IMG/VR virus record: IMGVR_UViG_3300021404_000012
Coordinates: 1-61,874 of that record
Origin: a virus
Lineage: Duplodnaviria; Caudoviricetes
DNA: 61,874 nt
Strand: one strand, 5' to 3'
The position numbers were made by a program, and so were the translations under genes. The notes beneath the pieces are model-generated. The model did no database searches. It had not been told where the DNA came from and worked only from the letters and a program-made list of their open reading frames with translations. Shown here in pieces: positions 171-61,869 of the stretch. Each line of letters begins with the position of its first letter. Position 1 is the stretch's first letter.

Positions 171-194
171 GTCGTCTCCACTACGGTAGTGGTC

Positions 195-413
195 ACGCTC
201 CACACTTGGGTTCTCGCTCCTGATCGGGCTCGCGCTCACCTAAGGGGTTCTCGCAAGTACGAGGGCTCGCGCATGAGGCTGGGTTCTCGCAGTTTAATGG
301 GCTCGCGCGTGGGGCAGGGTTCTCGCTGATTGTGGGGCTCGCGCATTGACTAGGGTTCTCGCAGTACAAAAGGCTCACGCCGCTCGTTGGGTTCTCGCCA
401 GCACTTTGGGCTT
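195..413 (-). ncRNA. TIGR-like dual-repeat guide array (6 units) downstream of the helicase
   Basis: Alternating GCGCGAGCCC and GCGAGAACCC(C) repeats separated by 8-nt variable spacers, 36-37 nt period. Confidence 0.9.
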
Positions 414-6474: not shown

Positions 6475-6479
6475 TAGAC

Positions 6480-6516
6480 GCGCCCTCGATTGGGGTTCTC
6501 GCATTGGAAAGGGCTC
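6480..6516 (-). ncRNA. Single TIGR-like guide unit
   Basis: GAGCCC-tttccaat-GCGAGAACCCC-aatcgagg-GCGC in the intergenic gap before polA. Confidence 0.85.
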
Positions 6517-6522
6517 ATCACA

Positions 6523-7242
6523 TTATGATCCTTCTACTTTCGGGGTCAACTTCCAATCTTCAATCGTGCACTGGACCGGTGCCTTATCGACGACGATGCC
6601 GTGCATCTGCGCCCCGGTGAACAGCGCAGAGATCACTTCCATCTTTTCCTCGTTATCGACAAACCAGTCATACGCGCCGCCGCTGCTCGGCCAGTCGAAC
6701 GCGTTGGTATTCCGGGGCAGGTGGCGCACCCGCTCGGCCCACGGGTTGCCCATCTCCTGCGCGACCACCGTCATCCCCGGCCAGCGCTTGATCAGCGAGG
6801 CGAGGGTGCCGCCATGACAGCGGGATAAAAATTCATCGATGATCCTCTTGGCGACGCGCATCTGGCGCGCATACTCAAGCGCCGGGTCGAGCCACGCGTG
6901 GAACGCCTCCCGCTTATCGGCGGTCAGCGCGGCGAGGTTGAACCGCCGGGTCCCGCCGGCGAAGTAAGGATACTTCAAATCCCTCGACACGATCTTCAGC
7001 GTGACCATCGCCTCGGGGGTGACCACTTGCACGTCCAAGGAGTTGGCCTCGTGATGGTACACCTTTGCCTCCTTGACCATGCGCCACGCCTCCTGCAGCT
7101 CACGCGGCCACACGCAGTCGAACGCCTCCTGCGCCGTCAGCGGAAAGTCGAGCAGCCGCAGCGCGAGCGTGCTGTCGATCAGGTCGTTGGCTTTTCTCTT
7201 GAACTGCCGCAGGGGTTCAGGATTGGTCTTATAGTTTGGCAT
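6523..7242 (-). CDS. Hypothetical protein
   Basis: ORF with GGAGTGTGA RBS. Confidence 0.7.
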   Translation of the reverse strand: MPNYKTNPEPLRQFKRKANDLIDSTLALRLLDFPLTAQEAFDCVWPRELQEAWRMVKEAKVYHHEANSLDVQVVTPEAMVTLKIVSRDLKYPYFAGGTRRFNLAALTADKREAFHAWLDPALEYARQMRVAKRIIDEFLSRCHGGTLASLIKRWPGMTVVAQEMGNPWAERVRHLPRNTNAFDWPSSGGAYDWFVDNEEKMEVISALFTGAQMHGIVVDKAPVQCTIEDWKLTPKVEGS

Positions 7243-7519
7243 CTTCACACTCCGTCTGTTCGCCCCGGTGAACCGTCAGTGGCACCGACATGCGATGATG
7301 TTCAAAGGAAACTTGGTAGTAGCCGGTCATGCCGTCTGTCGTCATCCCGACCACTTCAACACTGGTCTCGCCTCCCCAGTTTATTTTTGATAACTCGATC
7401 GCGAACGCCTCCGCTGCCTCCTTCATCCACTGCTTCACCACTACGGTAGTGGTTTGGTCGTTGGTGAAGCGCCAGTACGGCGCTTCACTTGGGTCGTAGA
7501 TGCCGGGGTCCAGGGTCAT
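7229..7519 (-). CDS. Hypothetical protein
   Basis: ORF in operon, ATGA coupling. Confidence 0.55.
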   Translation of the reverse strand: MTLDPGIYDPSEAPYWRFTNDQTTTVVVKQWMKEAAEAFAIELSKINWGGETSVEVVGMTTDGMTGYYQVSFEHHRMSVPLTVHRGEQTECEDAKL

Positions 7520-10514: not shown

Positions 10515-11723
10515 TTAACTTCTCGCGGCACGAAGAATGTCCTTGTTGTCGACCAGCCACTGCTGGACCTCACGCAGGGGCATCAGCGCCTTGGCACGAC
10601 GGATGTGCGCCATCGTCTGCTCGGTGTCCTTGTCCTCGTGACCGCCCAGCATCACGTCGAACGCGATACGCTGCATCTCGGTGCTGAAGCGCAGCACATA
10701 GCGGGTGATGGCTTGGGCTGTATCTTCAGTAACTTGGTCTGCCAACATGTACGAGCACACCATCTGCGCGTCCTTACCCGCCGGCACCTTCGCAGAACGG
10801 GGGTTCTGGAAGATGTCTTCCAACGCCGGTATCTCGTTGGCAAAGCGCATGTGGGTGAAGAACTGCCCTTGGGCGTGCTTGCCGATCCAGCCCTGGCAGA
10901 TTTCCGCCGCCATCAGGGTCATCGGCAGCTTGTCGTTGGCGATGTCCTGCTCGGTCATCATCACCCGCAGGTCCGCGTCCATCTTGCACAGCGTGCGTGC
11001 GGTGCAGAACGGCTCGGGCTTGTCGGGGACTTCCCTTGGAAAAACAATATCGGGTTGCCTCGCAATGAACGCCCTGGTCAGGATGTGCGGGCGATCGTCG
11101 TCGGGCAGGTCCTCAAGGTGACGTAACAAACAACCCGGATCACCCTCGATCTCCATCAAGCCGTGACGGTTGATGATGTGCATCAGCTCGCGGTTGGTAC
11201 CCGACCGGTCGCTGGTCCGGTTCTTGGCACCGACCACCCGCCATGCAGGAGGGAGAAAATGCGTGCCGACGTTGCCGTCGAGGATCAGCGGCGCCGCCGC
11301 CTTGCGCACGTCCTCGTCCGCCTGACCCCACTCGTCGAGAAAAACCACCCCCACTTCAGGAACCTCACCGTCCCAAGTGCCGGGAGGGTAAACCTCCCCG
11401 TCGGGGGTGAAGACCCAGATGTTGTCAACGTCCGGCATCCACGGGGGTAAAGAAAAAACAGTTCTTGGAACCCCGCCCTTGTCGTCCTTGATGGGGATCA
11501 TAAAACCCCGGATGTCGGGGGTCGTCAGGTTGGCGATCATCTCGATGACTAAACCGACTGGGCAAGCCAGTCGTTTAGCGAGACGAGCGCACATTTGTTC
11601 TATACTCTTGCTCTTGCCGACACCGGGTCCCGACTGCAGCATGTACCCGTTGGCACGGGTGCCCCTGCGGATCGCGTCGATATGGGTGTCGATGAGATGC
11701 GCTCTTGCTTGTTCGATATTCAT
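10515..11723 (-). CDS. MoxR-like AAA+ ATPase
   Basis: SGPGVGKS Walker A, VVFLDEW Walker B, sensor N (GAKNR), TARTL. Confidence 0.88.
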   Translation of the reverse strand: MNIEQARAHLIDTHIDAIRRGTRANGYMLQSGPGVGKSKSIEQMCARLAKRLACPVGLVIEMIANLTTPDIRGFMIPIKDDKGGVPRTVFSLPPWMPDVDNIWVFTPDGEVYPPGTWDGEVPEVGVVFLDEWGQADEDVRKAAAPLILDGNVGTHFLPPAWRVVGAKNRTSDRSGTNRELMHIINRHGLMEIEGDPGCLLRHLEDLPDDDRPHILTRAFIARQPDIVFPREVPDKPEPFCTARTLCKMDADLRVMMTEQDIANDKLPMTLMAAEICQGWIGKHAQGQFFTHMRFANEIPALEDIFQNPRSAKVPAGKDAQMVCSYMLADQVTEDTAQAITRYVLRFSTEMQRIAFDVMLGGHEDKDTEQTMAHIRRAKALMPLREVQQWLVDNKDILRAARS

Positions 11724-11786
11724 CGTAGTCACACTCTCCACTACCGGTAGTCACCAGGGACAATCCCTGGTAACGCCCTGTGTATA

Positions 11787-11919: not shown

Positions 11920-12385
11920 CTCGCGCTCGAGCAAGGGGTTCTCGCTATTCATGGGGCTCGCGCAGATCGTTGGGGTTCTCGCCAACTGCTGGGCTCGCGC
12001 CTCATCAAGGGTTTTCCGCTAGGTAAAGGGCTCGCGCCGGGGTAAGGGGTTCTCGCCTAACGTTGGGCTCGCGCTTGATCAAGGGTTCTCGCAAGGCACC
12101 AGGCTCGCGCTCATCGTAGGGGTCATCGCAATAAAGGGGGCTCGCGCAAATCGTGGGGGTTGTCGCTTATGACCGGGCTCGCGCTTAGGGCTGGGTTTCT
12201 CGCTCAAGATTGGGCTCGCGCCCACGTTTGGGTTCTCGCTACTCGTAGGGCTCGCGCAATTTCAAGGGTTTGTCGCTCCAGATTGGGCTCACGCTCCTGC
12301 TAGGGGTTCTCGCTGATGGTTGGGGCTCGCGCCGCTCGAAGGGGTTATCGCAACTATTAAGGCTCGCGCCTACTTTCGGGTTGTC
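11919..12385 (-). ncRNA. Main TIGR-like dual-repeat guide array (12 units plus a partial unit) downstream of the Tas-like gene
   Basis: 36-37-nt period, two alternating repeats, 8-nt unique spacers. Confidence 0.93.
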
Positions 12386-13467: not shown

Positions 13468-13470
13468 CCC

Positions 13471-13765
13471 GCGCTGTACAAAGGGGTCATCGCGCGTTGT
13501 AGGGCTCGCGCCCGACGGAGGGTTCTCGCGGTGATACGGGCTCGCGCCAGTCATCGGGGTTATCGCGGAGGATTGGGCTCGCGCTCGTAGTCGGGGTCAT
13601 CGCTTCTTGAGGGGCTCGCGCCGCTTGTCGGGGTTATCGCTCATGTGCGGGCTCGCGCTCGTTGCAGGGGTTGTCGCATATAGCTGGGCTCGCGCTCACC
13701 TTAAGGGTTCTCGTCGTCAACTGGGCTCGCGCACCAGAAAGGGGTTATCGCTTGCTTCAAGGCTC
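13471..13765 (-). ncRNA. TIGR-like guide array (8 units) upstream of the Tas-like gene
   Basis: Same alternating repeats and 8-nt spacers. Confidence 0.92.
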
Positions 13766-17081: not shown

Positions 17082-17276
17082 TCATCTTACAGTCCTTCCC
17101 TCGGCGAGGCGGCGCGCCTCGATCCTGCGGATGGTGTCGCGATGCCCCTCGATGGCAGTACGGACATTGCGTCCGTACTCACCAAAGCGGTTGTCACCTT
17201 GACCCAGAGTGTACTCAAGGCGCCGGATCGCTGCGTGCGCCTCGCGATAAAGTTTTTCCTCCGCGTCGTATTTCAT
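17082..17276 (-). CDS. Hypothetical protein
   Basis: GGAGAGTGTGAC RBS. Confidence 0.6.
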   Translation of the reverse strand: MKYDAEEKLYREAHAAIRRLEYTLGQGDNRFGEYGRNVRTAIEGHRDTIRRIEARRLAEGRTVR

Positions 17277-17278
17277 GG

Positions 17279-17359
17279 TCACACTCTCCACATCCCGAAA
17301 ATGGTCATCAATATCGCCGCAAACGCGATCAGGTGTATGTACGGTGCTAGGTCACTCAT
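17279..17359 (-). CDS. Small membrane peptide (26 aa)
   Basis: MSDLAPYIHLIAFAAILMTIFGMWRV; GGAG RBS. Confidence 0.4.
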   Translation of the reverse strand: MSDLAPYIHLIAFAAILMTIFGMWRV

Positions 17360-17423
17360 CACTCACTCCACTACGGTAGTGGCGGTGAATAGTACCATCG
17401 TACTTTCACCGAACAAATCGTGG

Positions 17424-17603
17424 TTACGCGCGCTTAGTCGCTGCGACCTGGCGTGCTGCCGTGGCGATCACCCGACTGGCGAACAGGGGGTCGTGCTCGT
17501 GGTTGTCCGCGAGCGCCTGAAGCTCCTCACGAGACATGCCGTACATGCCCAATGCACGTATGGCTGCCCAAAGATCATAGTTGTTAATCTCTCTCACACT
17601 CAT
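17424..17603 (-). CDS. Hypothetical protein
   Basis: GGAG RBS; first gene after the promoter at ~17700. Confidence 0.55.
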   Translation of the reverse strand: MSVREINNYDLWAAIRALGMYGMSREELQALADNHEHDPLFASRVIATAARQVAATKRA

Positions 17604-17688
17604 CTCGACCAACTCCAAAAAATAAATCGCCGACCACTACCGTAGTGGCGGTCCGTTCTCGGTACACGCAACCTGCGAGTAACGAGAT

Positions 17689-18572: not shown

Positions 18573-19532
18573 CTAGTCAGTCAGCTTGCCGACGCCAGCG
18601 TTCGCCTTGGCGTTCGCCGCAGCCCTACGTAGGTCGGGCTTGCCGCGCATCTTCGCAGCGCGCTCTGCCTGCCGCTTCTCAGCGGCGGCAGCGTCTTCGC
18701 GAGCCTGGCGCGCCGCTTCGAGCCGCTTGTAGTCGATACCTTTCAGGTATTCCATGACGACATCCCACTCGTCGCAACCTTCCGGGTATTCGTCGGCAAC
18801 GATCTCCAAGCTCTTGAGAGCTTGCCGCACGAGGTTGGCGCAGCGCTTGGGATCGCGGCGCAACTTCTTGCCCCGAGCCTCACAGAAATCCTCAAGGCTA
18901 TCAAAGATAGCCTCGTCCTCGGGTGTCGTTGCCCCAGCACGGGCGTCGAGCAAACCGCCTTTCTGGAACACGGCATGGTAGGACTTAGCGAAGCTATCAT
19001 GCAGCGGGGTATCGACGTCATCCTTTTTGAAGGATTTGCCAGCCGCTTTCGCCTCGTCTCTTGCCACTTTTGTGGCAGCAGTTTCCTCTGCCCACATCTC
19101 ACGCGCTCTCGTGAGATCGCTCTCGACGTGCTCACGGGCTTTCGGGTGGATGGCACGCTCGATCTCGCTACGCAATTGGGTGAGCGTGTCCTCGGTCGAA
19201 TTGCGCTCGTCACGATATGCGGCGATTGCGAGATCGACGCCTTGCATAACGTACTGAACTTCGTTCCACTCGTTTTCGATCGCCGCCTTGACTATCGTCA
19301 AGATGAGCGACACGCGGGTTCCATCGTGCGCATCGCTAGCCTTGTCAAAATCCGACTTGGCTAAACCTTTGGTTTGATCCGACTTGGCATACTTGCCAAT
19401 GATGTCATCCATGACCGCTTTAGCGGCAGTCGTGATGGGGTCGACGGGCTTGGGTGTCGCCACCGCGTCAGGCGTCGGCTTCGCCTCGTCTGTGACGAGC
19501 TGAACGGGGGACTTCGTGTTTGTGTTTGCCAT
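18573..19532 (-). CDS. Hypothetical helical early protein
   Basis: 319-aa Ala/Lys/Glu-rich ORF with its own terminator. Confidence 0.75.
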   Translation of the reverse strand: MANTNTKSPVQLVTDEAKPTPDAVATPKPVDPITTAAKAVMDDIIGKYAKSDQTKGLAKSDFDKASDAHDGTRVSLILTIVKAAIENEWNEVQYVMQGVDLAIAAYRDERNSTEDTLTQLRSEIERAIHPKAREHVESDLTRAREMWAEETAATKVARDEAKAAGKSFKKDDVDTPLHDSFAKSYHAVFQKGGLLDARAGATTPEDEAIFDSLEDFCEARGKKLRRDPKRCANLVRQALKSLEIVADEYPEGCDEWDVVMEYLKGIDYKRLEAARQAREDAAAAEKRQAERAAKMRGKPDLRRAAANAKANAGVGKLTD

Positions 19533-19873
19533 GATTGCGAACTCACACTTTGGTTGTCGGGACGATGTTGTCCCATCAATGGCGAAGCTGATTTGAACTA
19601 CCGGTAGTGCCACCTTCACCGTCACAAAGTGACGGTGCGGACCTGGCCCTTGTGCATGATGCGTGCGTCATTATGCGTGCATCCCGTGCGCGTCACGAGG
19701 CTTCGGCCAGCCCCCGGCCCCGGTCTGTCCATGGCCCCCGGCCTGGCTCCCGCCGCCACCTGCAGCGCCTAGACGAGAGTGACCCAAAAAGTGAAGTTAA
19801 CTTTTATTAACGCCACTTCACCACTACGGTAGTGCGGTACGTCGCACCGGCAGCCCTAGGAACTGCCGGTGCC

Positions 19874-20201
19874 GCGCGTCACTCTGGGTTTCACGCCTAA
19901 AAAAGGGCTCGCGCCATCTGTTGGGTTCAATCGCACATCCTTGGGCTCGCGCCGCATCAAGGGTTTTCCGCTCACCTAAGGGCTTACGCTACTTGCCGGG
20001 TTTTCCGCTTTCCATTTGGTTCGCGCGTTTCTTCGGGGTTCTCGCACAAGGTCGGGCTCGCGCTGCCTGTCGGGTTCTCGCTCAGGACTGGGCTAAATCG
20101 AACCGCCGGCGCCGCCGGCGGCTCACACGCAGAGTGTCGGGGTTTTCGCCTGTAACTGGGTTCGCGCAATACATAGGGTTCAACGCGTGTCCTGAGGGCT
20201 C
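19874..20201 (-). ncRNA. TIGR-like guide array (6+2 units, split by a GC hairpin at 20103-20121)
   Basis: Alternating repeats (loop variants GCGGAAAACCC, GCGATTGAACCC) with 8-nt spacers; 3' hairpin at 19843-19872. Confidence 0.85.
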
Positions 20202-20341
20202 CGTGGTTGTTCACCACGGTTCACAGAATATCACCGTCGTAAATACAGGTCTACAAGTTTCGTATTTTTGAGATTGAGGATTTTCAATAACTTAACGTTT
20301 CTCTTGCGCGCGAATGACATTCTCGTTACGGTTTTATTCCC

Positions 20342-21034
20342 ATGATCCTCCCCCCAGACGGTCAAGGCCACATCCGGTTCGCCGCGATCTCGCGCACGGC
20401 GCTGGGCACGCGCTGCGCGCGGCTAAACGATCTGCAAAAATTCTACTCTCGATTACCTAAACTACAGTGCGACAAGGTAATTCACCTCGGCGGGGTTACC
20501 GAGACGGCGGCGCCCGAACTCGCGAAAATTTACCCCCGCGTCGAGGGCGTGACCACCGTCGAGCTGGCAAACGGCAGCTTCGCCCCCTGCGGCGGGCGTA
20601 TGCTGCGGGAAGGCCGCGCCGACTGGGTTACCACCCCAAATAAGATACCCCTCGCCCTACGGGCTCTGGAGGGCATTAAAAACGAAACGGTCCTGTGTCT
20701 TTATTATGACCGGTCGGGGGATCGGGGTTTATCTGAAATTGCCGATGAGGTGTATGAGCGCGATAGCGAGCGGGGGCGAATGGAAGGTGGTAACACTTCG
20801 TTTGTGATCTTGGTCGGGGGCCAGCGCCGGCTGGCGCACCGGTACTTTCAGAATACCACGCGCACCACCTGCTTTGTCGGCAGCGTCGGGGTGTTCGACG
20901 CCCGCGCCAGTGTCAAGAACCCGCCGGCGCCCTACGGCGGCAGCATCGTCGAGGTGAAGCTGCACGGTGACGGCAGCTTGGACACCTGCACGCTGACCTT
21001 TCGCGACATGTCTGGGGGGATGCCGGATGTCTGA
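20342..21034 (+). CDS. Degenerate calcineurin-like metallophosphoesterase-fold protein
   Basis: IRFAAISRTALG, VIHLGG, ILVGGQR and GGSIVEV fall at the positions of the DxH, GD and GHxH motifs, but the metal ligands are lost. Confidence 0.5.
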   Translation: MILPPDGQGHIRFAAISRTALGTRCARLNDLQKFYSRLPKLQCDKVIHLGGVTETAAPELAKIYPRVEGVTTVELANGSFAPCGGRMLREGRADWVTTPNKIPLALRALEGIKNETVLCLYYDRSGDRGLSEIADEVYERDSERGRMEGGNTSFVILVGGQRRLAHRYFQNTTRTTCFVGSVGVFDARASVKNPPAPYGGSIVEVKLHGDGSLDTCTLTFRDMSGGMPDV

Positions 21035-21239
21035 AGTGCGTGAGCGAGTGAAAGTAAGTGATAGGGTGATTGTCACCGATCACAGCGAGGTTATCCAAAT
21101 CTCGGTCTACCGCGACGCCGACAAGCTGGTCTGCGTCGAGCAGTCTCCCCTGCAATCGCTGATGATCGCCGAGCGGCTGCTCGACGCCGCGCTGCGCCGG
21201 CTGATCGTGGACAGCGAGACCCGCGCCAAGTTTTTGTAG
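21027..21239 (+). CDS. Hypothetical protein
   Basis: Overlaps the upstream stop. Confidence 0.55.
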   Translation: MSEVRERVKVSDRVIVTDHSEVIQISVYRDADKLVCVEQSPLQSLMIAERLLDAALRRLIVDSETRAKFL

Positions 21240-21608
21240 GGTTTTGTAGGGTTGTGTAGGGTGTTGCGTGGTTCCGCGACGTTCTGTCGCACGCCCCGCA
21301 AACCTTACGGCAGGGGTGCGTTCCTTACACATGGCTGTCATTCAGGGTTGTGGACAATCTGCCGGTCATCCCGATAAGTGGTTTCATATAAAATGTTTTT
21401 CACGCCTCCGTGAGCCCCTGGCCCCACGGGCCAGGGGTAGGAGCTGATGTGAACATACATGGTACATACGCAATGTGATAGTATAACCTCCATAATAAGG
21501 CGGCTAAAATTACAATGGCCTAAGGGACGGTAATAAAATATAAATATGAACCTTATACACCGGCGTTCTGTTGGTTGTGGGCAGAAGCGTGATCTGTGGA
21601 GGTTATAT

Positions 21609-22133
21609 ATGAGAGGAAGTGGAGCGGCGCGTGGGGGCGCCGCTGCAGGGCGTGGGGAACCAGAAACGCTGCCGCCGGTTAATTCGTATGTCATCAGCGG
21701 AATAACCGAGTGGTTGTACGGTCGGGAACGTATGCAACGCCGGCCCGAGGCGACGGCGAAAGTGTTGTGGCTCGTGTGCGTGCTGCACAAGGATAGGATA
21801 CCTTGGCCCACAAGGCCGGCGGTCTCAACGCACCTGGGTGTGTCGATGCCGTTGGTGGACGTGGCGATCTCGCAAAGGCGGGCCGATGGTTTGCTTACTG
21901 TGGTGATCGAGACCAAGCGCGGGCACGTCAAGCAACGGGCGTCGGTGGTAACCGACAAATACATCGAGCCTAGCGAGGAACTCTTTAAGATTTTTCGCGA
22001 TGCCGAGAAAGCCGAGAAGAAATTACTTAAGAAAGCCGCGACGGCGGCGAAGTCCGTGGCGTTTATCACCACGGGCGCGACGGCCCTTTGTTTGGCCCAG
22101 TTATGTTGCGCTTGCTTTCTCCACTATATATAG
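21609..22133 (+). CDS. Putative winged-HTH DNA-binding protein
   Basis: WPTRPAVSTHLGVSMPLVDVAISQRRADGLL is wHTH-like; GGAGG RBS. Confidence 0.55.
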   Translation: MRGSGAARGGAAAGRGEPETLPPVNSYVISGITEWLYGRERMQRRPEATAKVLWLVCVLHKDRIPWPTRPAVSTHLGVSMPLVDVAISQRRADGLLTVVIETKRGHVKQRASVVTDKYIEPSEELFKIFRDAEKAEKKLLKKAATAAKSVAFITTGATALCLAQLCCACFLHYI

Positions 22134-22257
22134 GTAATATAGTTGCACTGCCTGCCGCTTGGTGTTTGCTGGCGGGCTGGGTTAGACGGCGAGTGCCATA
22201 AAAACCCCGTCATCGGGTGGGGGCCTTTTCACACTCGGCCCCGCGACCCGATTTTTT

Positions 22258-22294
22258 GAGCCCGGCCAGGGGCGAGAACCCCACCGCATAGCGC
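22258..22294 (+). ncRNA. Single TIGR-like guide unit
   Basis: GAGCCC-ggccaggg-GCGAGAACCCC-accgcata-GCGC followed by a terminator. Confidence 0.85.
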
Positions 22295-22296
22295 GG

Positions 22297-22323
22297 AACC
22301 GGCCCCCTGCGGGGCCGGTTTTT
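22297..22323 (+). terminator. Terminator after the single guide unit
   Basis: AACCGGCCCC-ctgc-GGGGCCGGTT followed by TTT. Confidence 0.75.
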
Positions 22324-22342
22324 ATGGTTACTACCGGTAGTG

Positions 22343-22630
22343 CTACTGACCTGAGGTGCTGCCCCCGAGGATGTAGCCGGCGATCGCCGAGAGCGCGGCG
22401 AGCGCGGCCTCGCCGCTGATCTTCTCCTGCAAGCACAAAAGCGCGATCGTCGGGACTATCAAGAATAATACGATCGCCCGCGAGATGATCCGCCCCTCGA
22501 TCATCTGCCGGACCGTCGCGTCGCTGCCGGGGGCGAAGAAGATACTGCCAAAAACCAGCAGGCCGGTGACGGTGACTAAAATCCCCACCATGCCGAACGC
22601 CGCCCAGATCAGGCGATCGTGGCTGTCCAT
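22343..22630 (-). CDS. Membrane protein (holin-like candidate)
   Basis: Three hydrophobic helices, ends AIAGYILG. Confidence 0.55.
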   Translation of the reverse strand: MDSHDRLIWAAFGMVGILVTVTGLLVFGSIFFAPGSDATVRQMIEGRIISRAIVLFLIVPTIALLCLQEKISGEAALAALSAIAGYILGGSTSGQ

Positions 22631-22634
22631 CGCG

Positions 22635-22841
22635 TCACTTAATTTCCATGCAGCGGGTGACGATCTGCGTCACCAGCGCGGTTCGCCGGTCGATCTGATC
22701 GGCGAGGAACCACATCACCAGACCCAAAAACACCACATTAAGCAGCACCAGCATGAGGAAAGCCGGCGGCAGCGCGCCGATCAGCTTCGAGCTGATATCG
22801 GTGACCGCGCCGATCGTGCCCTCGTGTTGAGGTTCGCTCAT
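22635..22841 (-). CDS. Small membrane protein
   Basis: Single transmembrane helix. Confidence 0.6.
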   Translation of the reverse strand: MSEPQHEGTIGAVTDISSKLIGALPPAFLMLVLLNVVFLGLVMWFLADQIDRRTALVTQIVTRCMEIK

Positions 22842-23026
22842 TGATCAAGATGATCCCTCAGATAGTCCCCCAGATGCTGGCATATGTCGTGTGCCCGCAC
22901 TAAGGGACTGCTTCCTACGTGAGCTACATTTAGCAACAGCGTCACAAGGTCTTCGAGCATCTCCTGCGAGGGGTCTTCAAGCGCGGCGACGGCGCCCTCG
23001 TGTTTGGGATCGGGAGGTTCACTCAT
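22838..23026 (-). CDS. Hypothetical protein
   Basis: ATGA-coupled; N-terminus resembles that of the neighbour (MSEP..HEG). Confidence 0.55.
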   Translation of the reverse strand: MSEPPDPKHEGAVAALEDPSQEMLEDLVTLLLNVAHVGSSPLVRAHDICQHLGDYLRDHLDQ

Positions 23027-23232
23027 GGTGTCTGCTGCTGTTCAGCCGCCTCCAGGCCCAGCGGGCCGGGGGGCGGCACCGGCGGGGCCGCGCCAAACCG
23101 CGCGACGTACTGCCGCGTCAGCGAGTGGCGGCAGTACATCCATAGGTTTGTATCGTTGCTCAGTTGAGTAGCCCGCGTGGCGGGGGTGGTCGAGAGGTTG
23201 ATCATGCGCTGGTAATAAAGCCGTGATGCCAT
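23023..23232 (-). CDS. Hypothetical protein
   Basis: AGGAGG RBS. Confidence 0.6.
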   Translation of the reverse strand: MASRLYYQRMINLSTTPATRATQLSNDTNLWMYCRHSLTRQYVARFGAAPPVPPPGPLGLEAAEQQQTP

Positions 23233-23243
23233 TGGTTCCTCCT

Positions 23244-23459
23244 TTAAGACCGAGGCGTCCCGTCAGGGTGCCGGGTGATGGCGATGTTGGCCCACATCGC
23301 GACTTCGCGGAGCTTGCGCATCAGGTAGGTTTTGTCAGGCCCTTCGGGGATGATCAGATCAAGGTCTTTCGCCAATTCGCTGAATAGCTCGCGCGCCTGG
23401 CCCATCGTTGTCATCTGATCGTCGGTTGGCTTTAGGTATTCAAATGTAGACTTGTCCAT
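23244..23459 (-). CDS. Acb2/Tad1-like helical hairpin protein (candidate anti-defence nucleotide sponge)
   Basis: FEYLKPT..Q...R...ELA....IPEGPDKT..MRKLREVAMWANIAI pattern. Confidence 0.5.
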   Translation of the reverse strand: MDKSTFEYLKPTDDQMTTMGQARELFSELAKDLDLIIPEGPDKTYLMRKLREVAMWANIAITRHPDGTPRS

Positions 23460-23470
23460 CGTTCCCTCCT

Positions 23471-24883
23471 TCACGTCCACGCCGCTGATGAATACGGCGC
23501 TAACCCTGTGCCTTGCGTAGGGTTAAAGAAGCGGCGTTCTCGCATGAGAACCCTGCCGGTGAGGTTGCTCTGGGTGCCCAGGCAGAAATACTGGAGCGCG
23601 TCGCAGATATCCGACCAGGGGTGTAATTTCTCAGGTATGTCGTCGAGGACGCCGTCGCGGCGCCGCCTGTATCGATACTTATTACCGAGGGCGGAAATCA
23701 GGATCGGGCACCCGATCCTGCTTATTTGCAGGGCCGGCTGGCCCATCACCTGCTGTCTGAGGAATTTCTCGACGGCCAGCAACCGCATATCAATTACATT
23801 CGTACTCGCAGGGTAGGCTAAAAATCCCTCCTCCTTCAACACGTCGAAGGGGGTTTCTTCCCTGGTTTGCGACCGTTGGCGACCCGCAGGATCACCCACC
23901 ACAAAAACTCTTTTCCCCGCAAACGGCGGCGCCAGTAAGACCGGCTTGAGGTGCTCCTGCAGCATCTGCACCAGCCCCATGCCCTCGGTGACGATCTCCT
24001 TCATAATTATGGCTCTGCCGTAATTATCGTGCTGCCCGATCAGCGCGCACGGCGTGCGTCCGAAGTCCAAACCGATCATCAGGGGTTTGTTTGGATTAAC
24101 TGTTACACTCATGTCCTTGACGTGGGTGGGCGCGTGGAAGGTTCGCCTGAACACCGCCTGGCCGGCGTTGCTCTCGCCCCACTGGCTCTCGACGTGAACC
24201 AGGGACCACTCAACATCCTTGTCCCCCATTAATTCATCATAGTAGCCGTCAGGAAGGTTCTCGACGTTCTCGGCGTCGGGGCCGATGCCTGACGGCTGGT
24301 GATACAGCGCCCATGACGGGTGCGGATTTAATACCAGCCGGTCGTGGTAGGGACTTTCTGTATCCCAGGGATTTGTATCGGCGATGATCCCGCGCCAAGT
24401 GGCGCCGCCGAGGGCCTTGGAGGGATATCTTCCACACCGACCCAGTAGTGGGCGGATGATGTCGAACGGCACTTCACGCAGCTCGTTGATCCACGCGCCG
24501 GTGAGCTGCATTGAGAGTAACCTTCGGACATCTTCCTTGTTGTCCAACGGCAGTAGCATCCAGTCGCTGTGAACGCCTGTCCCATCCGGCAGGTGCAGCC
24601 TCACCTGCAGCGTGCTGTCGGTGACATAGTAGTGAACCGTCTCGCCCATGTACTGGATCGCGTCGGCTAGGACGGTCTGGCGGAGTTGCTGCAGCGTGTT
24701 TCTGATGAGCGCGAAGCGGGTGTAGCGGACGCCGTTGCTCGGCTCCTGCTCGATCGCCCGCCGCAGCAGCTCCATAATGCAGCCCATGGTCTTGCCCGAA
24801 CCGAGGGGGCCGACCAGCACGCGGATGACGTGTTGATCATCCAGCATGAAGTCCTGCACGGTTGGCGGGGGCTGGAAGAACAT
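23471..24883 (-). CDS. terL: Terminase large subunit
   Basis: GPLGSGKT Walker A, AWINE Walker B, DTNP, GLDFGRTP RNase H fold, GDPAG, DALQY. Confidence 0.93.
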   Translation of the reverse strand: MFFQPPPTVQDFMLDDQHVIRVLVGPLGSGKTMGCIMELLRRAIEQEPSNGVRYTRFALIRNTLQQLRQTVLADAIQYMGETVHYYVTDSTLQVRLHLPDGTGVHSDWMLLPLDNKEDVRRLLSMQLTGAWINELREVPFDIIRPLLGRCGRYPSKALGGATWRGIIADTNPWDTESPYHDRLVLNPHPSWALYHQPSGIGPDAENVENLPDGYYDELMGDKDVEWSLVHVESQWGESNAGQAVFRRTFHAPTHVKDMSVTVNPNKPLMIGLDFGRTPCALIGQHDNYGRAIIMKEIVTEGMGLVQMLQEHLKPVLLAPPFAGKRVFVVGDPAGRQRSQTREETPFDVLKEEGFLAYPASTNVIDMRLLAVEKFLRQQVMGQPALQISRIGCPILISALGNKYRYRRRRDGVLDDIPEKLHPWSDICDALQYFCLGTQSNLTGRVLMRERRFFNPTQGTGLAPYSSAAWT

Positions 24884-24902
24884 TGTCTACCAGTCCCCGC
24901 CC

Positions 24903-24944
24903 GCGCATGGGACAGGGTTTTCACGCGGGTTCGTGGGCTCGCGC
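24903..24944 (-). ncRNA. Single TIGR-like guide unit between terS and terL
   Basis: GCGCGAGCCC-acgaaccc-GCGTGAAAACCC-tgtcccat-GCGC. Confidence 0.8.
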
Positions 24945-24954
24945 CAATCTAGCA

Positions 24955-25521
24955 TCATACTTCGACATCCTCAAACTCGGCGTCGTCCTCGTCGGGACGC
25001 AGCGAGATCGACTGCCGGGGCGGCGGGATTTCATCGGCTTCCACTACGGTAGTGGCGCGGTAATCCTTGCGGCCCCCGGCGAAGTTGATGGTCAGGTTGA
25101 ACGCGGCGCCGAGGGACTTTTGCTGCGCGTCCTTGGCGCCGGCGGGCGCCCCATCCACGCCGGCTCCCCTCTGGAATTGCTTAAAACCGTCGATCCGCTG
25201 CGCGATCGGTGTCCTCGGGTCGTTGATCAGCGCCGTCATCGGGATGATTAATTGTTCAGTGGCGTGCATGAACTTGTTGCGTATCCGCACCTCGGTTGCT
25301 TCGTCGCTCAAGTAGAGCGCCCGCAGTTTGCGCGCCTCGTAGACAATAACCGGGTGCAGCCGCAGGTATTCCTTGAGCGCATCCTTGCCGTCGAGCCCGT
25401 AGCGGTGGGCGATCGTCTCGGCGTCGTGCATCCCCATCGCGAGGTCGTACTGCAGCCGCAGTATCAGCGCGTCTTCCTGCGCCGGGTTCGGGTCGTAGAT
25501 CGAAGGATAAGGGCTGCTCAT
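24955..25521 (-). CDS. Probable terminase small subunit
   Basis: Immediately upstream of terL; N-terminal HTH-like region, FNLTINF strand, acidic tail. Confidence 0.65.
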   Translation of the reverse strand: MSSPYPSIYDPNPAQEDALILRLQYDLAMGMHDAETIAHRYGLDGKDALKEYLRLHPVIVYEARKLRALYLSDEATEVRIRNKFMHATEQLIIPMTALINDPRTPIAQRIDGFKQFQRGAGVDGAPAGAKDAQQKSLGAAFNLTINFAGGRKDYRATTVVEADEIPPPRQSISLRPDEDDAEFEDVEV

Positions 25522-25597
25522 ATTTTTACACGCCCTTGCGTTGCGAATTTTTCGAGGTATAACGTATGAAGGTCATATTTTCAAATGGGGGTGATAG

Positions 25598-27781
25598 TTG
25601 CCGCCGGCGTTGCCCGTAGGGAACCCGCCAACGATCTCGCTGGCACGCGAGAACGGGCCAGGTTTTCTGCGCGTGGTCAGCCCCGCGACGCTGGATCGCC
25701 AGGAACAGGACCGCCTCGCGGTCGCCTCGCAGGCGAACCGCCCGCAGGCGATCGACAACCTGGCGCACTTCATTCGCGGGCGGTGGGACCACATGCGGAA
25801 CCACCGCAATTCCAACCGCAACCCGCTCAACGAGCGCCTCCTGCGCGCGCAGCGCATGTTCGAGGGCCAGTATGACCCGTCGAAGCTGAACGAAATCAGG
25901 AAGTTTGGCGGTTCCGAAGTCTACTCGCGGCTGGTCGCCGTCAAGTGTCGGGGCGCTACAAGCCTGCTCCGCGACGTGTACCTGGGGCCTGAGCGCCCGT
26001 GGTCGATCGACCCCCAGCCCGATCCGCCGGTCCCGGCGGGGGTTATCCGCAACATCACCGAACTCGTCGCCGCCGAGGCCGCGCAGCTCGCCCACGCCAA
26101 TCAGCACTTGGACGACGATGAGGCGCACGGGCGCTACATCGGCCTGATGCGGCAGGCGCAGAACGCGGCGCGGCGCATGGCCGACAGCCAAGCCGAGGCG
26201 GCGTCCAACAAGGTCGATGACATCCTGACCGCCGGCGGGTTCTACGATGCGCTGGCGGAATTTCTGGTCGACGTTGCCCTGTACCCGTTCGCGGTCATCA
26301 AGGGGCCGGTGGTCCGCATGGTGCAGAAGCTGGTGTGGAACGGGCGCCAGCCCAGCGTCAACATCGTGCCGCAACTGTTCTGGGAACGCGTCGATCCCTT
26401 CAACTTCTACTGGGACCCTGGCGCCACGGACATCGAACGCGCCGAGCTGATCGAGCGCAAGCGGTTCAAGCGCAGCGATCTCAACGAGGTGCTTGGTCTA
26501 CCGGGGTATAACGACGCGGCGATCCGGGGGGCTCTGCAGGATTACGCGAATGGCCTGCGCGACTGGATGGACAGCCCCGACACCGAGGCCGCGCTGAATG
26601 TCGGGCGCGAGGCGCCGCAGCAGAACCTCTCGCAGTTTATCGACGGGATCGAGTATCACGGCAGCGTCCAGGGTAAGACCCTGCTCGACGAGGGGATGAA
26701 CCCCGCCCAGATACCCGATCCCGATCGTGATTACCTGGTTCAGTCTTGGGTTGTTGGGCGGTATACTATCAAGACCCAACTAACGCCAAGTCCGCGCCAG
26801 CGGCATCCTTACTACGTTACTAGTTTCGAGAAAGTACCCGGCACTATTGCTGGGCATGGACTGCCGGATATTCTTGAGGATTTGCAGGAAGTCGCCAACG
26901 CCACGCTGCGCGCGCTGGTCAATAACATGAGTATAGCGAGCGGCCCCCAGGTTGTTATCAATACCGAATTACTCGACCCCACCGTTAACGAAGACCAATT
27001 ATATCCTTGGAAACGCTGGAAAGTTAATAGTGATCCGCTGGGCATGACCCGCGAGCCGGTGACCTTCTTCCAGCCGCAGTCGAACGCCCAGGAGTTGATG
27101 ACGATTTATCAGGCCATGTCGAGCCTGGGCGACGACATCTCGGCAATTCCTCGGTACGTCACGGGTGAGAGTTTGTCGGGTGGCGCGGGGCGCACGGCGT
27201 CTGGCCTGTCCATGCTGATGGGCAACGCTCAGAAAGTATTGCAGACAGTAGCGGCAAATATCGACATCGACGTTATGCGGGGGGTTCTTAACTCCCTGTA
27301 CGACATGATCATGCTGACCGATACAACCGGGCTGTTGTCTGGCGACGAACAAATAAAAGTCAACGGCGTTGTGGTCGCGCTGCAAAAAGAGACCGAGCAC
27401 CAGAAGCAGCTACAATTCTTACAAATAACGGGTAATCCCATTGATATGCAAATTGTTGGTTTGACTGGCAGAGCCAGGGTGCTGCGCGCGCTGGCGACCG
27501 GGCTGGGTCTGCCGGACGACATCGTGCCGGACGACGACACGATGCAGCAGAAGGAAAAAGACGCCAAGGACATGCAGACGGCAGCCGCGATGGGCGCGGC
27601 TCAGGGCGCGGTTCAGGGGGGCGGTCCACCCGGCGGTCCTCCTGGGGCGGCTCCTCCCGGCCTGCCAGGGTCTTCCCCTCCCACACAAGGGCAGGCTGGG
27701 CAGGGGTCGCCCGCAATTCCCCCGGCCTCGCTGTCGCAGATGGCGCCGCCGGTCAACACCGTTCAGCCGCGCGCGGCTTGA
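25598..27781 (+). CDS. Portal protein
   Basis: 727 aa, first gene of the structural operon; VDPFNFYWDP, GAGRTASGLSMLM, Gln/Pro/Gly tail. Confidence 0.88.
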   Translation: MPPALPVGNPPTISLARENGPGFLRVVSPATLDRQEQDRLAVASQANRPQAIDNLAHFIRGRWDHMRNHRNSNRNPLNERLLRAQRMFEGQYDPSKLNEIRKFGGSEVYSRLVAVKCRGATSLLRDVYLGPERPWSIDPQPDPPVPAGVIRNITELVAAEAAQLAHANQHLDDDEAHGRYIGLMRQAQNAARRMADSQAEAASNKVDDILTAGGFYDALAEFLVDVALYPFAVIKGPVVRMVQKLVWNGRQPSVNIVPQLFWERVDPFNFYWDPGATDIERAELIERKRFKRSDLNEVLGLPGYNDAAIRGALQDYANGLRDWMDSPDTEAALNVGREAPQQNLSQFIDGIEYHGSVQGKTLLDEGMNPAQIPDPDRDYLVQSWVVGRYTIKTQLTPSPRQRHPYYVTSFEKVPGTIAGHGLPDILEDLQEVANATLRALVNNMSIASGPQVVINTELLDPTVNEDQLYPWKRWKVNSDPLGMTREPVTFFQPQSNAQELMTIYQAMSSLGDDISAIPRYVTGESLSGGAGRTASGLSMLMGNAQKVLQTVAANIDIDVMRGVLNSLYDMIMLTDTTGLLSGDEQIKVNGVVVALQKETEHQKQLQFLQITGNPIDMQIVGLTGRARVLRALATGLGLPDDIVPDDDTMQQKEKDAKDMQTAAAMGAAQGAVQGGGPPGGPPGAAPPGLPGSSPPTQGQAGQGSPAIPPASLSQMAPPVNTVQPRAA

Positions 27782-35620: not shown

Positions 35621-37363
35621 TTGGTCGCATGGGAGATCAAGGGTATGGGGGGCGTGATCCCCCGGCAGGACGACCGTCTTATTGGCGACAATATGGCGGT
35701 GGAGGCGGCGAACTGCGACCTTACCGGCGGTCAGCTTGTTGGTCTCCCACAGGCCGAGCTGCAGATCGATCTCAGCGGCCAACTACCAGTAGTGGAGAGG
35801 GCTTATCGGTTTCCGCCCGACGACACCGGAGCTACTGTCTGGCTGCCGTTGCCTTCGCGCTACAGCTCCGTTGTCCGCTCGCCGCTGGCGAACGACGACA
35901 CGAACCGGGTCTACTGGACAAATCCCGGCGACCCGGTGCCGTGGTTCAACACGCGCGACCGCATCAAGGCGGGCCAGCCAGCCTATAATCTGGGTATCGT
36001 ACAGCCGACGACAGCGCCGTCGATCACCGACGTAACGGGTGGCGATACGACCGTACCGGCGATCGATCGCGCGTATGTCTATACATTTACCAATAGCTTC
36101 GGCGAGGAAACCTCACCCTCGCCGGCAAGCGCCATCGCGACGGGTCCGCCCGATGCGACGTGGACCGTTACCGGGTTCCCCACGGCGGCACCGGCTAATC
36201 CTGCGGGTGTGAATTACGCACCCATTACTAAGTATCGGATTTACCGGACGATCACCGGGCAGACGACCGGGGCGCAATTTTACTTCGTCGCGGAAGCGGC
36301 GCTGCCGAATGGCAATCCGACCTATGTTGACACTCAGCCGGACAGCACTGCGGTCTATAACGAGGTGCTGGAAACCGTGGGGTGGGGCAACCCGCCTTCC
36401 GGGCTCGACGGCCTGGTCGCGATGCCGGGTGGTTTTCTCTGCGGCTTCACCGGCAACACGGTGCATTTTACGGAGCCCAACCGCCCGCACACCTGGCCTT
36501 TCGTTTATGACCAGAGCGCGCACTACAAGATCGTCAACCTCGCGGTGTGGCAACAGTACCTCATGGTGCTGACGCAGGGTTACCCCTCGGCGGGCTCGGG
36601 CAATATGCCCAGCAACATCATCCTTGTGCAGTCTCAGGTCGCGGAGCCGTGCATCGCGCGGGGCTCGGTCATGGTCGATTTGTCGGGGGTTTATTACGCC
36701 TCGCAAAACGGCTTGGTTCTGTTCACCGGCTACGGGATGCAGAACATGACGGCGGGGGTCGTCGAGAAGAACGAGTGGCTCAACTACTATCATGCCGAGG
36801 ACTTGGTGGCGTGCCGGCACCGCGCGCAGTTTATGGCGGTCAACGGCACCGATCAGGGTTTCCTCATCGACTACGCGGAGGTGCGGCTGGGGTTCGAGGA
36901 CCTCACCACGCTAAAGGACGTGGTGTGCATCTGGAACGACGAGTACACCGGCGACACGCTGATGTGCGCGGACGGGCGCATCTATGAGTGGGATTGTCCC
37001 GATACGCCCCCGCAGGTTTACCGGTGGAAGTCAAAGCAATGGTTCACGCCGATGCCGCTAAGCCTTGGCGCGGCGCAGGTTGAGCTGGACCCGCAGATAT
37101 ACGACACAGCACCGACTGACCCGATCCCGCTCGACAATGGCGACCCGGCGATGCAGCTCCCGGCGGGGATCAACGCGCAGTTCCGCTACTACGCGGGGCC
37201 AAAGCTGACGTTGATTATGACCCGCAACCTGACAAAGCAGATGGAGATTTTCCGCCTCCCGAAAGGCTTTAAGGCGTTCGACCATCAGGCCGAAGTCCTA
37301 TCGCGTGTACCCATCTCGTCGATCCAACTGGCTTCAACGCTCACCGAATTAAAGGTGACGTGA
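35621..37363 (+). CDS. Tail nozzle/stabilisation protein
   Basis: 580-aa beta-rich protein; [34 protein letters not shown]. Confidence 0.7.
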
Positions 37364-53716: not shown

Positions 53717-53863
53717 ATGCCATTGAAGAAGGGTTCGTCCCGCGAAACCATCTCCTCGAATATCAAGACCGAAATTGCCGCCGGCAGGCCGCAGAAGCAG
53801 GCCGTTGCCATCGCATTAAACACGGCTGGCAAGAGCCGCCCCTCGGGTGGTAGAAAGAAGTAG
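53717..53863 (+). CDS. Small basic phage protein (48 aa)
   Basis: [34 protein letters not shown]...; GGAGG RBS. Confidence 0.75.
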
Positions 53864-53965
53864 CCCTACCTCGGGCGAGAACCCCTAAAGAAGCGCGAGC
53901 CCTGTTGGCAGCGCGAACCCAGCTACAGGCGCGAGCCCCGGAGGAGGTGCCAACCCCCGTAACAA
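53861..53965 (+). ncRNA. TIGR-like guide array (about 3 units) at the end of the virion operon
   Basis: AGCCC-N8-GCGAGAACCC-N8-GCGCGAGCCC-N8-GCGCGAACCC-N8-GCGCGAGCCC. Confidence 0.8.
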
Positions 53966-54118
53966 AGGTTGACACCCCCCCGACTATGGACGCACGATCT
54001 TGACGACGATGCGTAAGATCAATACGATCCTCAGCCGGAACCGCCGATGCTTTGCCATCGTCAGTTCCTCCGAAGGTGCCGGATGGTCCACCCATCCGGC
54101 ATTTCCTTTTTAGCACAT

Positions 54119-61743: not shown

Positions 61744-61869
61744 CGCTTGTCTGGGGGATCGTCCCACCACAAGCGGGCGATCTCGTAGTTATCGCGTGCG
61801 CCCTCGAAGGGGTTCTCGATCCGGTCGATCACCCCGGCGTGTCCGCGCCAGGGTGAGTGATCTCCGGTA
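61744..61869. repeat. Terminal direct repeat/assembly overlap, copy of 1-126
   Basis: Exact copy of the window start. Confidence 0.95.

Follow-up and report, generated by a model that had tools for sequence, protein, structure and literature searches.

What the split spacers of TIGR-Tas systems recognise in nature is the question raised by a small element in a soil phage genome (Caudoviricetes; IMG/VR record IMGVR_UViG_3300021404_000012), which was analysed over its full 61,874 nucleotides (nt), hereafter the window. According to Faure 2025 (PMC12045711) and Xu 2026, short spacers and the metagenomic origin of the loci prevented the natural targets of TIGR guides from being identified, and the biological role of these systems is unknown. 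In the window, a solitary guide unit named S2 lies downstream of a gene for a winged helix-turn-helix (wHTH) protein, and two further solitary units, S1 and S3, also lie beside genes. Each of the three matches an adjoining gene at 12 of 16 positions, with differences that leave the protein unchanged. The reading we favour, to which we assign a probability of roughly 55%, is that S1, S2 and S3 are allele-specific guides against related phages, each linked to a recoded and immune allele of the phage's own.

S2 is a unit with the layout AGCCC, GGCCAGGG (spacer A), GCGAGAACCCC (loop repeat), ACCGCATA (spacer B) and GCGCG. Its 5' end reads (G)AGCCC, and an inverted-repeat search identified the stretch 22258-22295 as the reverse complement of the unit in arrays II and IV. 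Joined as spacer B followed by the reverse complement (rc) of spacer A, the two spacers give ACCGCATACCCTGGCC, which resembles ATAGGATACCTTGGCC in the wHTH gene, 450 nt upstream of the unit. The mismatches fall at positions 2, 3 and 5, in the spacer B half, and at position 11, in the spacer A half. All are synonymous: introducing the guide version would change GAT to GAC, AGG to CGC and CCT to CCC and leave the protein as it is. The sequence-only reading of this DNA had described a stand-alone guide with its own terminator that points at DRIPWP in the neighbouring gene. The complete unit and a hairpin followed by a U-run were confirmed, and the 12/16 identity with silent differences was borne out, whereas the statement that both sites encode DRIPWP stood only in part: the 16-mer spans just 2 nt of the Asp codon, and the guide itself specifies (x)AC-R-I-P-W-P(CC), that is, the peptide RIPWP with an incomplete codon on either side.

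The other two solitary units follow the same pattern, their near-cognate sites lying 35 nt (S1) and 526 nt (S3) away. Each of the three sites has exactly four mismatches against its guide, and 12 of the 12 differences are synonymous, which implies that the guides track real coding alleles and that the changes occurred on the gene side, given that a drifting guide would differ mostly at non-synonymous positions. The resident codons are rarer than those of the guide version at the S2 and S3 sites, with relative-frequency ratios of 17.6 and 6.5, but not at the S1 site (1.1); at the S2 site this concerns AGG (0.10) and CCT (0.11). The repeats of all three units are intact and match the consensus. 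Two further claims of the sequence-only reading also held, namely that there are exactly three single-unit cassettes and that every one of them points at an adjoining gene; an nhmmer profile built from the 40 units of the window found no additional unit there, solitary or other.

Considering that a 12/16 match at the nucleotide level carries no weight, since about 5 are expected by chance for each 16-mer in the window, we used a stricter measure, the silent match, defined as the placement of a 16-mer within a gene, in either orientation, with the protein unchanged. The 40 guides were compared in this way with 70 called genes (54,897 positions) under four joining rules. B+rc(A), the joining adopted in the sequence-only reading, gave 6 silent matches and was the sole rule with a signal (rc(A)+B, 0; A+B, 0; B+A, 1). 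These 6 of 40 guides include 3/3 solitary units, each of them matching a flanking gene. In the genome-wide null, 6000 letter-shuffled targets produced 102 silent matches (0.017 per target), and in the permutation test of adjacency that had been proposed as a check, none of 450 shuffled solitary-unit targets matched a neighbouring gene. The exact expected numbers of silent matches in the two flanking genes are 0.7-1.6e-3 for S1, 0.5-1.5e-3 for S2 and 0.9-1.1e-3 for S3, with a product of 0.5-1.5e-9, about 1e-9. That all three silent matches should fall in adjoining genes goes far beyond what chance predicts. An explanation by coincidence, in which any 16-mer would find some short degenerate match, can draw on the frequency of nucleotide matches at 12/16 and on the fact that the silent-match statistic was defined after the claim had been read. 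Against it stand the expected numbers (~1e-3 for a single unit, ~1e-9 for all three together), the shuffled targets, the control rules and, independently of these, the 14/16 agreement of the corresponding site in the closest relative (G001, see below); we consider it refuted at the level tested and give it practically no weight.

The genome also encodes the protein needed to use such guides, a Tas effector. It matches PDB chain 9mty_A, a TasR structure entry, with a phmmer E of 1e-6, and its AlphaFold model, built with 34 homologues, has a predicted local distance difference test score (pLDDT) of 82. The ten best Foldseek matches of the model are all TasR or TasH cryo-electron microscopy chains (9mty, 9w04; probability 1.00). 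The model consists of a coiled coil, interrupted by one short hairpin, and a helical Nop-like domain. There is no Pfam hit, and no HNH or RuvC nuclease domain was found by Pfam or in the model. The family comprises 1318 homologues at E <= 0.001, mostly of 265-300 residues. Given the absence of a nuclease domain and this family size, the effector is classified as the nuclease-less TasA type, an assignment that is based on a domain missing from the model and not on an assay. A C-terminal loop carries an H..Y motif, of which H290 is invariant in the 34 homologues; Xu 2026 names the C-terminal H/Y loop of Tas the processing loop. Around this protein, the window contains 40 dual-repeat tigRNA units, 37 of them in five arrays and 3 solitary, obtained by a regular-expression parse that gave 44 candidates, from which 4 shifted-register duplicates were removed. 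The units are 36-38 nt long and alternate edge and loop repeats of 10-12 nt with two 8-nt spacers. In the sense form, read from the minus strand because tas lies there, the edge is GCGCGAGCCC and the loop GCGAGAACCC(C). The TIGR system of a Salicola phage likewise has 16 variable nt in total (Faure 2025, PMC12045711). The TIGR-Tas papers describe spacers A and B as pairing with opposite strands of adjoining half-sites, and cleavage by TasR as leaving 3' overhangs. By geometry, B+rc(A) is the only joining rule that gives such overhangs; the present data select this rule independently and are indirectly consistent with the pairing so predicted.

If the guides are directed at other alleles, their codons should be sought in related phages. 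Given that TerL, the large terminase protein, is at most 41% identical to that of cultured phages (25 records), the phage has no close cultured relatives; in IMG/VR, 21 loci carry a TerL 72-85% identical to it. A Tas homologue is absent from five records of these relatives, three of them with a completeness of 99% or more. G001, the closest relative (TerL 85% and wHTH 55% identical), is without Tas. Its homologous site, GAC CGC ACG CCC TGG CCC, agrees with the S2 guide at 14/16 positions, compared with 12/16 for the resident site; at each of the four positions that separate the resident gene from the guide, G001 has the base of the guide, and its own differences are confined to the Ile/Thr codon. 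Among the 14 wHTH homologue loci retrieved from IMG/VR by an alignment query, this 14/16 is the best value, the other 13 lying 4-14 mismatches from the guide; a single-protein query of IMG/VR gave 37 pattern matches and no relatives. The sequence-only reading had also suggested a search for perfectly matching homologues, and none was found in IMG/VR or in one metagenome scan. At the TerL site the S3 guide agrees with the 21 close relatives at 14/16 (15 loci), 13/16 (3) or 11/16 (3), against 12/16 for the resident. The synonymous-only differences and these outgroup codons together suggest that what the guides target is the un-recoded alleles in related phages, and that the resident alleles would be immune.

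PWPTRP is invariant in 17 aligned wHTH homologues, whereas the residues before it vary. At the protein level, DRIPWP is present in a 92% identical wHTH protein (P0122) and ERIPWP in a 90% identical one (P0123), and because these motifs recur in such close proteins, alleles that the S2 guide could match plausibly exist. The contig that encodes P0123 also encodes a Tas protein (P0002) with 88% identity, and in P0127 and P0133 the site reads RIPWP. When the 40 guides were compared with three complete relatives lacking Tas, there was no match with 0-1 mismatch and there were 6 with 2 mismatches, 4 of which belong to S2 or S3 (null mean, 2.57). The silent-match comparison with the genes of these relatives gave 10 matches under B+rc(A), 3 of them by S3, against 2, 0 and 4 under the control rules, an excess that is suggestive only. 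One of the silent matches, that of guide II.11 in G002, falls where the homologue in the window differs in amino acids.

Another possibility is that the near-matches are footprints of guide birth, in which solitary or array-terminal units would be copied from nearby DNA, the site would then escape by silent mutation and the guide, lacking a present target, would be decaying. In favour of such copying, the distance to the site is at most ~530 nt for five of the six guides that have near-matches, the final units of arrays II and IV being among them, and the mode by which TIGR arrays gain spacers is unknown according to the published accounts. We nevertheless regard this origin as unlikely. The repeats of S1, S2 and S3 are in consensus, the S2 guide has the codons of the nearest relative, and with 0/12 differences non-synonymous, the guide side does not seem to drift. 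Moreover, a useless or harmful guide would be more easily lost by deletion than neutralised by four silent changes.

Allele-specific guidance would work as follows. S2 would be a working gene for a single guide within the TIGR-TasA system that the phage itself carries, and we infer that it is expressed and processed: it would be transcribed on the plus strand, ending at its own terminator, and TasA would trim the transcript to a tigRNA of ~37 nt with two 8-nt spacers. The recognised site would be B+rc(A), a synonymous variant of wHTH codons 62-67. Because of the 4/16 mismatches, three of them within spacer B, the resident gene is most likely left alone by guide S2, which instead points at other alleles of that gene; the four silent changes would spare the resident gene, and the un-recoded allele of closely related phages would be acted upon. 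TasA proteins guided into a gene repress its transcription, as reported in the Xu 2026 preprint, and with a nuclease-less effector the likely effect would be the silencing or blocking of a rival gene: in co-infection TasA would bind the rival allele and block its transcription, perhaps also replication. Guide and immune allele, side by side, would form a linked "poison and antidote", which recombination with a rival would rarely separate because of their tight linkage, so that no self-targeting recombinants would arise. S3 would act likewise on the large terminase gene and S1 on the gene upstream of the DNA polymerase.

The repressor activity published for TasA proteins could also serve an autoregulatory role, in which TasA-S2 would tolerate the mismatches, bind the resident site and tune wHTH expression in cis; closer self-matches of other guides, at 15/16 in gene 17142-17645 and at 14/16 over the start codon of gene 10515-11741, could be regulatory. 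At the S2 site, however, three of the four mismatches (C·A, C·T and C·C) fall in the 8-nt spacer B half, and most single or double mismatches already impair TasR and TasH activity in the published data. Selection for self-binding would, moreover, favour a match at every available silent position and not a mismatch, and we regard autoregulation at this site as improbable. Two other ideas were rejected. In an RNA-RNA pairing of S2 with the mRNA of the gene, only spacer A would be antisense, spacer B being sense; an RNA decoy against Tas, by analogy with solitary CRISPR repeats, would not explain protein-preserving matches.

Several findings weigh against the reading of S1-S3 as guides against rivals. 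A perfectly matched rival, whose existence it presupposes, did not appear among the sequences searched: none of the 25 TerL loci examined is perfect for S3, the four exact matches of the S2 16-mer in IMG/VR all lie outside wHTH homologues, and a metagenome scan for wHTH gave two loci, neither matching the S2 guide. The exact S3 16-mer occurs at two loci, one of which coincides with the homologous motif in a TerL that is very distant (22% identity, GC 0.45) and may be due to chance, and the S1 site is not conserved in G001. The expression of S2 also meets difficulties, given that a consensus scan of 19500-23500 found no sigma-70 promoter and a hairpin followed by U6 (T1) stands directly upstream of the unit. 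The same scan returned three terminator-like sites, the S2 terminator not being among these. The gene calls were an ad hoc set based on GC content at third codon positions. The B+rc(A) rule was derived from the reported 3' overhang together with the present data and not from an explicit published statement, and it is treated as inferred because its geometry gives 10 overhang bases for 9-nt spacers, compared with the 8 reported. Finally, in three other phages with Tas proteins 64-73% identical and the same repeats, 0/51 units have a silent self-match under B+rc(A), which implies that the pattern is not general; these phages have no related terminase, their units adjoin tas, and dispersed single units are absent from them, with one possible exception.

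Variation among populations was followed at the slots of S2 and S3. In the window, the gap between the small and large terminase genes is 71 nt and holds S3, whereas in 16 of the 19 relatives in which both genes were found it measures -1 to 11 nt. At the terminase junction of G001 (L006 1131-1500), two small open reading frames, one of them for a 53-residue hydrophobic protein, stand instead of S3, suggesting that the junction is an insertion hot spot. Soil contigs from metagenome runs X1, X2 and X3, which are the listed carriers, and X8, of two studies in all, were compared with 20300-25600 over the parts that contigs covered. One X3 contig joins 24889 to 24951, which would remove the S3 cassette of ~61 nt, and a second X3 contig, entering at 22291, has the S2 loop repeat unchanged but two different spacers at the S2 slot; each is a single contig at a likeness threshold of 80 and is weak evidence. 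By eye, the spacer B 8-mer of this alternative S2-slot guide equals 22229-22236, the loop of the hairpin upstream of S2, and if its spacer A is read in one particular way, the full site would again agree at 12/16. The apparent absence of S3 and the apparent spacer change at the S2 slot resemble the presence/absence polymorphism and spacer turnover that mini-CRISPR arrays show.

In the "intronless homing" of T-even phages, a selfish cassette stands beside a conserved gene, its site lies in the relatives' gene, and the site of the carrier is protected by silent polymorphisms. A homing-like drive, an RNA-guided analogue of this process with its free-standing endonucleases, would require that the sensitive allele of a co-infecting relative, once bound by TasA-S2 or cut by a nuclease recruited to it, undergo recombinational repair from the guide-bearing genome, which would copy the cassette together with the recoded allele. 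Guides and near-cognate sites are separated by 35-530 nt, S3 is a discrete stretch of ~61 nt, present or absent, between terminase genes that otherwise abut, and the resident sites here differ by silent changes, as do the resistant sites of homing-endonuclease carriers. Recognition would, however, depend on an RNA guide here and on a protein there, and no nuclease was detected. Tas has an all-helical model with a small hairpin, and a nuclease that cuts the cassette-less allele was not found in Tas, other phage nucleases lying outside the search. In E. coli, according to the published account, even the nuclease TasR caused plasmid loss and not repair, and we regard a homing-like drive as quite unlikely.

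Table 1. Positions of the S2 locus, its counterparts S1 and S3, the effector gene and the arrays in the window
Feature	Position	Strand	Basis or remarks
wHTH gene, 174 aa	21609..22133	+	ATG at 21609, GGAGG Shine-Dalgarno; reading frame open from 21546
S2 near-cognate site	21793..21808	+	codons D62-P67 (DRIPWP); 12/16 to B+rc(A)
Solitary tigRNA unit S2	22259..22295	+	in register with 39 other units; nhmmer hit
S2 5' half-edge AGCCC	22259-22263	+	parse
S2 spacer A	22264-22271	+	parse
S2 loop repeat	22272-22282	+	parse
S2 spacer B	22283-22290	+	parse
S2 3' half-edge GCGCG	22291-22295	+	parse
S2 terminator	22295..22327	+	12-bp G+C-rich stem, 4-nt loop, UUUUU; -23.6 kcal/mol, z = -2.4
Hairpin T1 with U6	22212..22257	+	between gene stop and S2; minimum free energy structure of 22134-22335
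Solitary unit S1	6479..6515	-	between gene 6523-7248 and DNA polymerase A gene; repeat parse
S1 match	6550-6565		TIEDWK, last 14 codons of upstream gene 6523-7248; 12/16, synonymous only
Solitary unit S3	24902..24939	-	fills the small/large terminase gap; repeat parse
S3 match	24361-24376		TNPWDT in TerL gene; 12/16, synonymous only
TerL gene	23471-24883	-	
Tas effector, 300 aa	12485..13387	-	phmmer, AlphaFold model, Foldseek; flanked by two arrays
Array I, 6 units	194..412	-	repeat parse
Array II, 12 units	11922..12364	-	downstream of tas; repeat parse
Array III, 8 units	13470..13764	-	upstream of tas, terminator at end; repeat parse
Array IV, 2 + 6 units	19873..20200	-	divided by hairpin; repeat parse
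Array V, 3 units	53862..53970	+	3' edge of last unit degenerate; repeat parse

The product of the wHTH gene is predicted to adopt a MarR-like winged-helix fold in which the C-terminal helix is long and the tail hydrophobic (model pLDDT 79). The top PDB folds are MarR-family regulators, with E of ~1e-3; no Pfam or PHROG hit was obtained, and 15 homologues were found. The tail, rich in Cys, is common to the protein of the window and its closest homologues, P0122 and P0123, and is absent from more distant ones. T1 could terminate transcription of this gene or, alternatively, form a structured leader for the guide RNA. Neither S1 nor S3 has a terminator; both lie inside operons, S1 being 4 nt upstream of the start codon of the polymerase gene and S3 18 nt upstream of that of the terminase gene. 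Inspection by eye suggested promoter-like hexamers ahead of S1 and of S3 as well as an AT-rich segment around ~22110-22150, unconfirmed by any tool. In the AT-rich region upstream of the wHTH gene, a perfect 10-bp hairpin (21411-21443) holds the 8-mer of S2 spacer A and its complement; its likeness to S2 is probably chance, the spacer B half matching at 2/8 positions.

As regards the arrays, Faure 2025 (PMC12045711) describes them as opening with a 5'-truncated edge and closing with a 3'-truncated edge and a rho-independent terminator; here arrays II, III and IVb end in a 3'-truncated edge followed by a hairpin. Under B+rc(A), three self-matches with at most two mismatches were found among the 40 guides, where the null gives 0.76 on average. 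Of all guides, array I unit 5 has the closest self-match, to 17398-17413, at 15/16 with a synonymous lone mismatch, in gene 17142-17645 (+), the sole plus-strand gene within a long minus-strand block; judging from the match, this could be a genuine self-regulatory target. The last unit of array II matches 11709-11724 at 14/16, 200 nt downstream, over the start codon of the ATPase-like gene 10515-11741, and the last unit of array IV matches 19776-19791 at 14/16, 82 nt downstream, in the intergenic region upstream of gene 18573-19625.

The genome itself is circular and of ~61.7 kb, bases 1-126 recurring at 61744-61869, and the IMG/VR record is rated 98% complete. In addition to TerL it has a portal gene, and the encoded proteins include a family A DNA polymerase and an SNF2 helicase (Pfam). 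In the window, Rfam at the gathering threshold gave no matches and ARAGORN no tRNAs. Collagen-like 9-nt periodic repeats coding for Gly-X-Y occupy 37700-38070 within a tail-region open reading frame of 750 residues (37360-39612, +). A 13-nt palindrome, CACTACSGTAGTG, occurs in 14 copies in the window against 0.09 expected, at 179, 1989, 7439, 13390, 15502, 17369, 17635, 19822, 25042, 28903, 30781, 40283, 48517 and 57308. The copies often stand directly past arrays or at gene-cassette borders, with one immediately upstream of the tas start. The palindrome is probably a phage regulatory site, either an operator or a terminator motif, for which the MarR-like protein is a candidate binder.

The arrangement can be compared with two kinds of guide RNA previously described in viruses. 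Virus-borne mini-CRISPR spacers target close relatives, with the virus's own orthologous locus mutated and the targets near the mini-array (Medvedeva 2019, PMC6858448). The present units share with these the one- or two-guide intergenic loci in a virus genome, the nearness to targets and the mutated own site, which is seen at three places (4 synonymous mismatches each; 35, 450 and 526 nt), as well as one slot holding different spacers between strains, if the X3 contig at the S2 slot is taken into account. They differ in the TIGR dual repeats with split 8+8-nt spacers reading both strands, in a phage-encoded effector that is apparently a binder and not a nuclease, whereas mini-CRISPR borrows the host's, and in own-site differences that are all synonymous and inside genes. 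In contrast to SPV1/SPV2, no rival with a 100% match was found, and the best homologous site, 14/16 in G001, falls short of the near-perfect match that characterises mini-arrays. VIPR (bioRxiv 10.64898/2026.04.26.720920) is similar in being phage-encoded, RNA-guided transcriptional silencing against other phages, and its paper discusses escape by synonymous codons. Its protein and guide architecture, with GGY/NN repeats that skip wobble positions, are nevertheless unrelated, and its authors report no self-matching guides, whereas here silent wobble differences separate self from target.

With the TIGR-Tas systems of Faure 2025 (PMC12045711) and Xu 2026, as described there, the present one shares a Nop-domain Tas, alternating edge and loop repeats, split spacers, a unit length of 36-37 nt, array ends formed by a truncated edge and a terminator, a phage-borne location and the TasA type. 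Unlike the published loci, in which arrays lie beside or inside tas, its five arrays and three solitary units are scattered across 54 kb of the 62-kb genome. In the limited literature searched, no report was found of natural TIGR targets or of guide-linked recoding. Measured against that literature, a natural TIGR target relationship, dispersed solitary tigRNA genes and their pairing with silently recoded neighbours appear to be new, while TIGR-Tas systems and the interviral use of mini-arrays were already known.

The finding means that in this phage genomic position supplies the missing target information, in that each solitary guide adjoins the gene family it would recognise and synonymous-only differences mark self. 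It provides a search recipe for TIGR targets, namely to join B+rc(A) and to seek protein-preserving matches in neighbouring genes and in relatives, and it makes the target question directly testable with two 16-bp sites four silent bases apart, a small protein and a 37-nt RNA. It would also extend the use of guide RNAs by viruses against viruses beyond mini-CRISPR, to an unrelated system with a virus-encoded effector. More tentatively, and with clearly less confidence than in allele-specific guidance itself, the solitary units may be natural "guide-plus-rescue" modules, selfish toxin-antidote or drive-like elements in phage populations. Reciprocal warfare would then make the guide slots turn over from strain to strain, and the arms race would be recorded in the silent recoding linked to them. 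If true, these would be the first natural targets and the first biological role of TIGR-Tas, and the modules would constitute a natural counterpart to engineered cleave-and-rescue drives.

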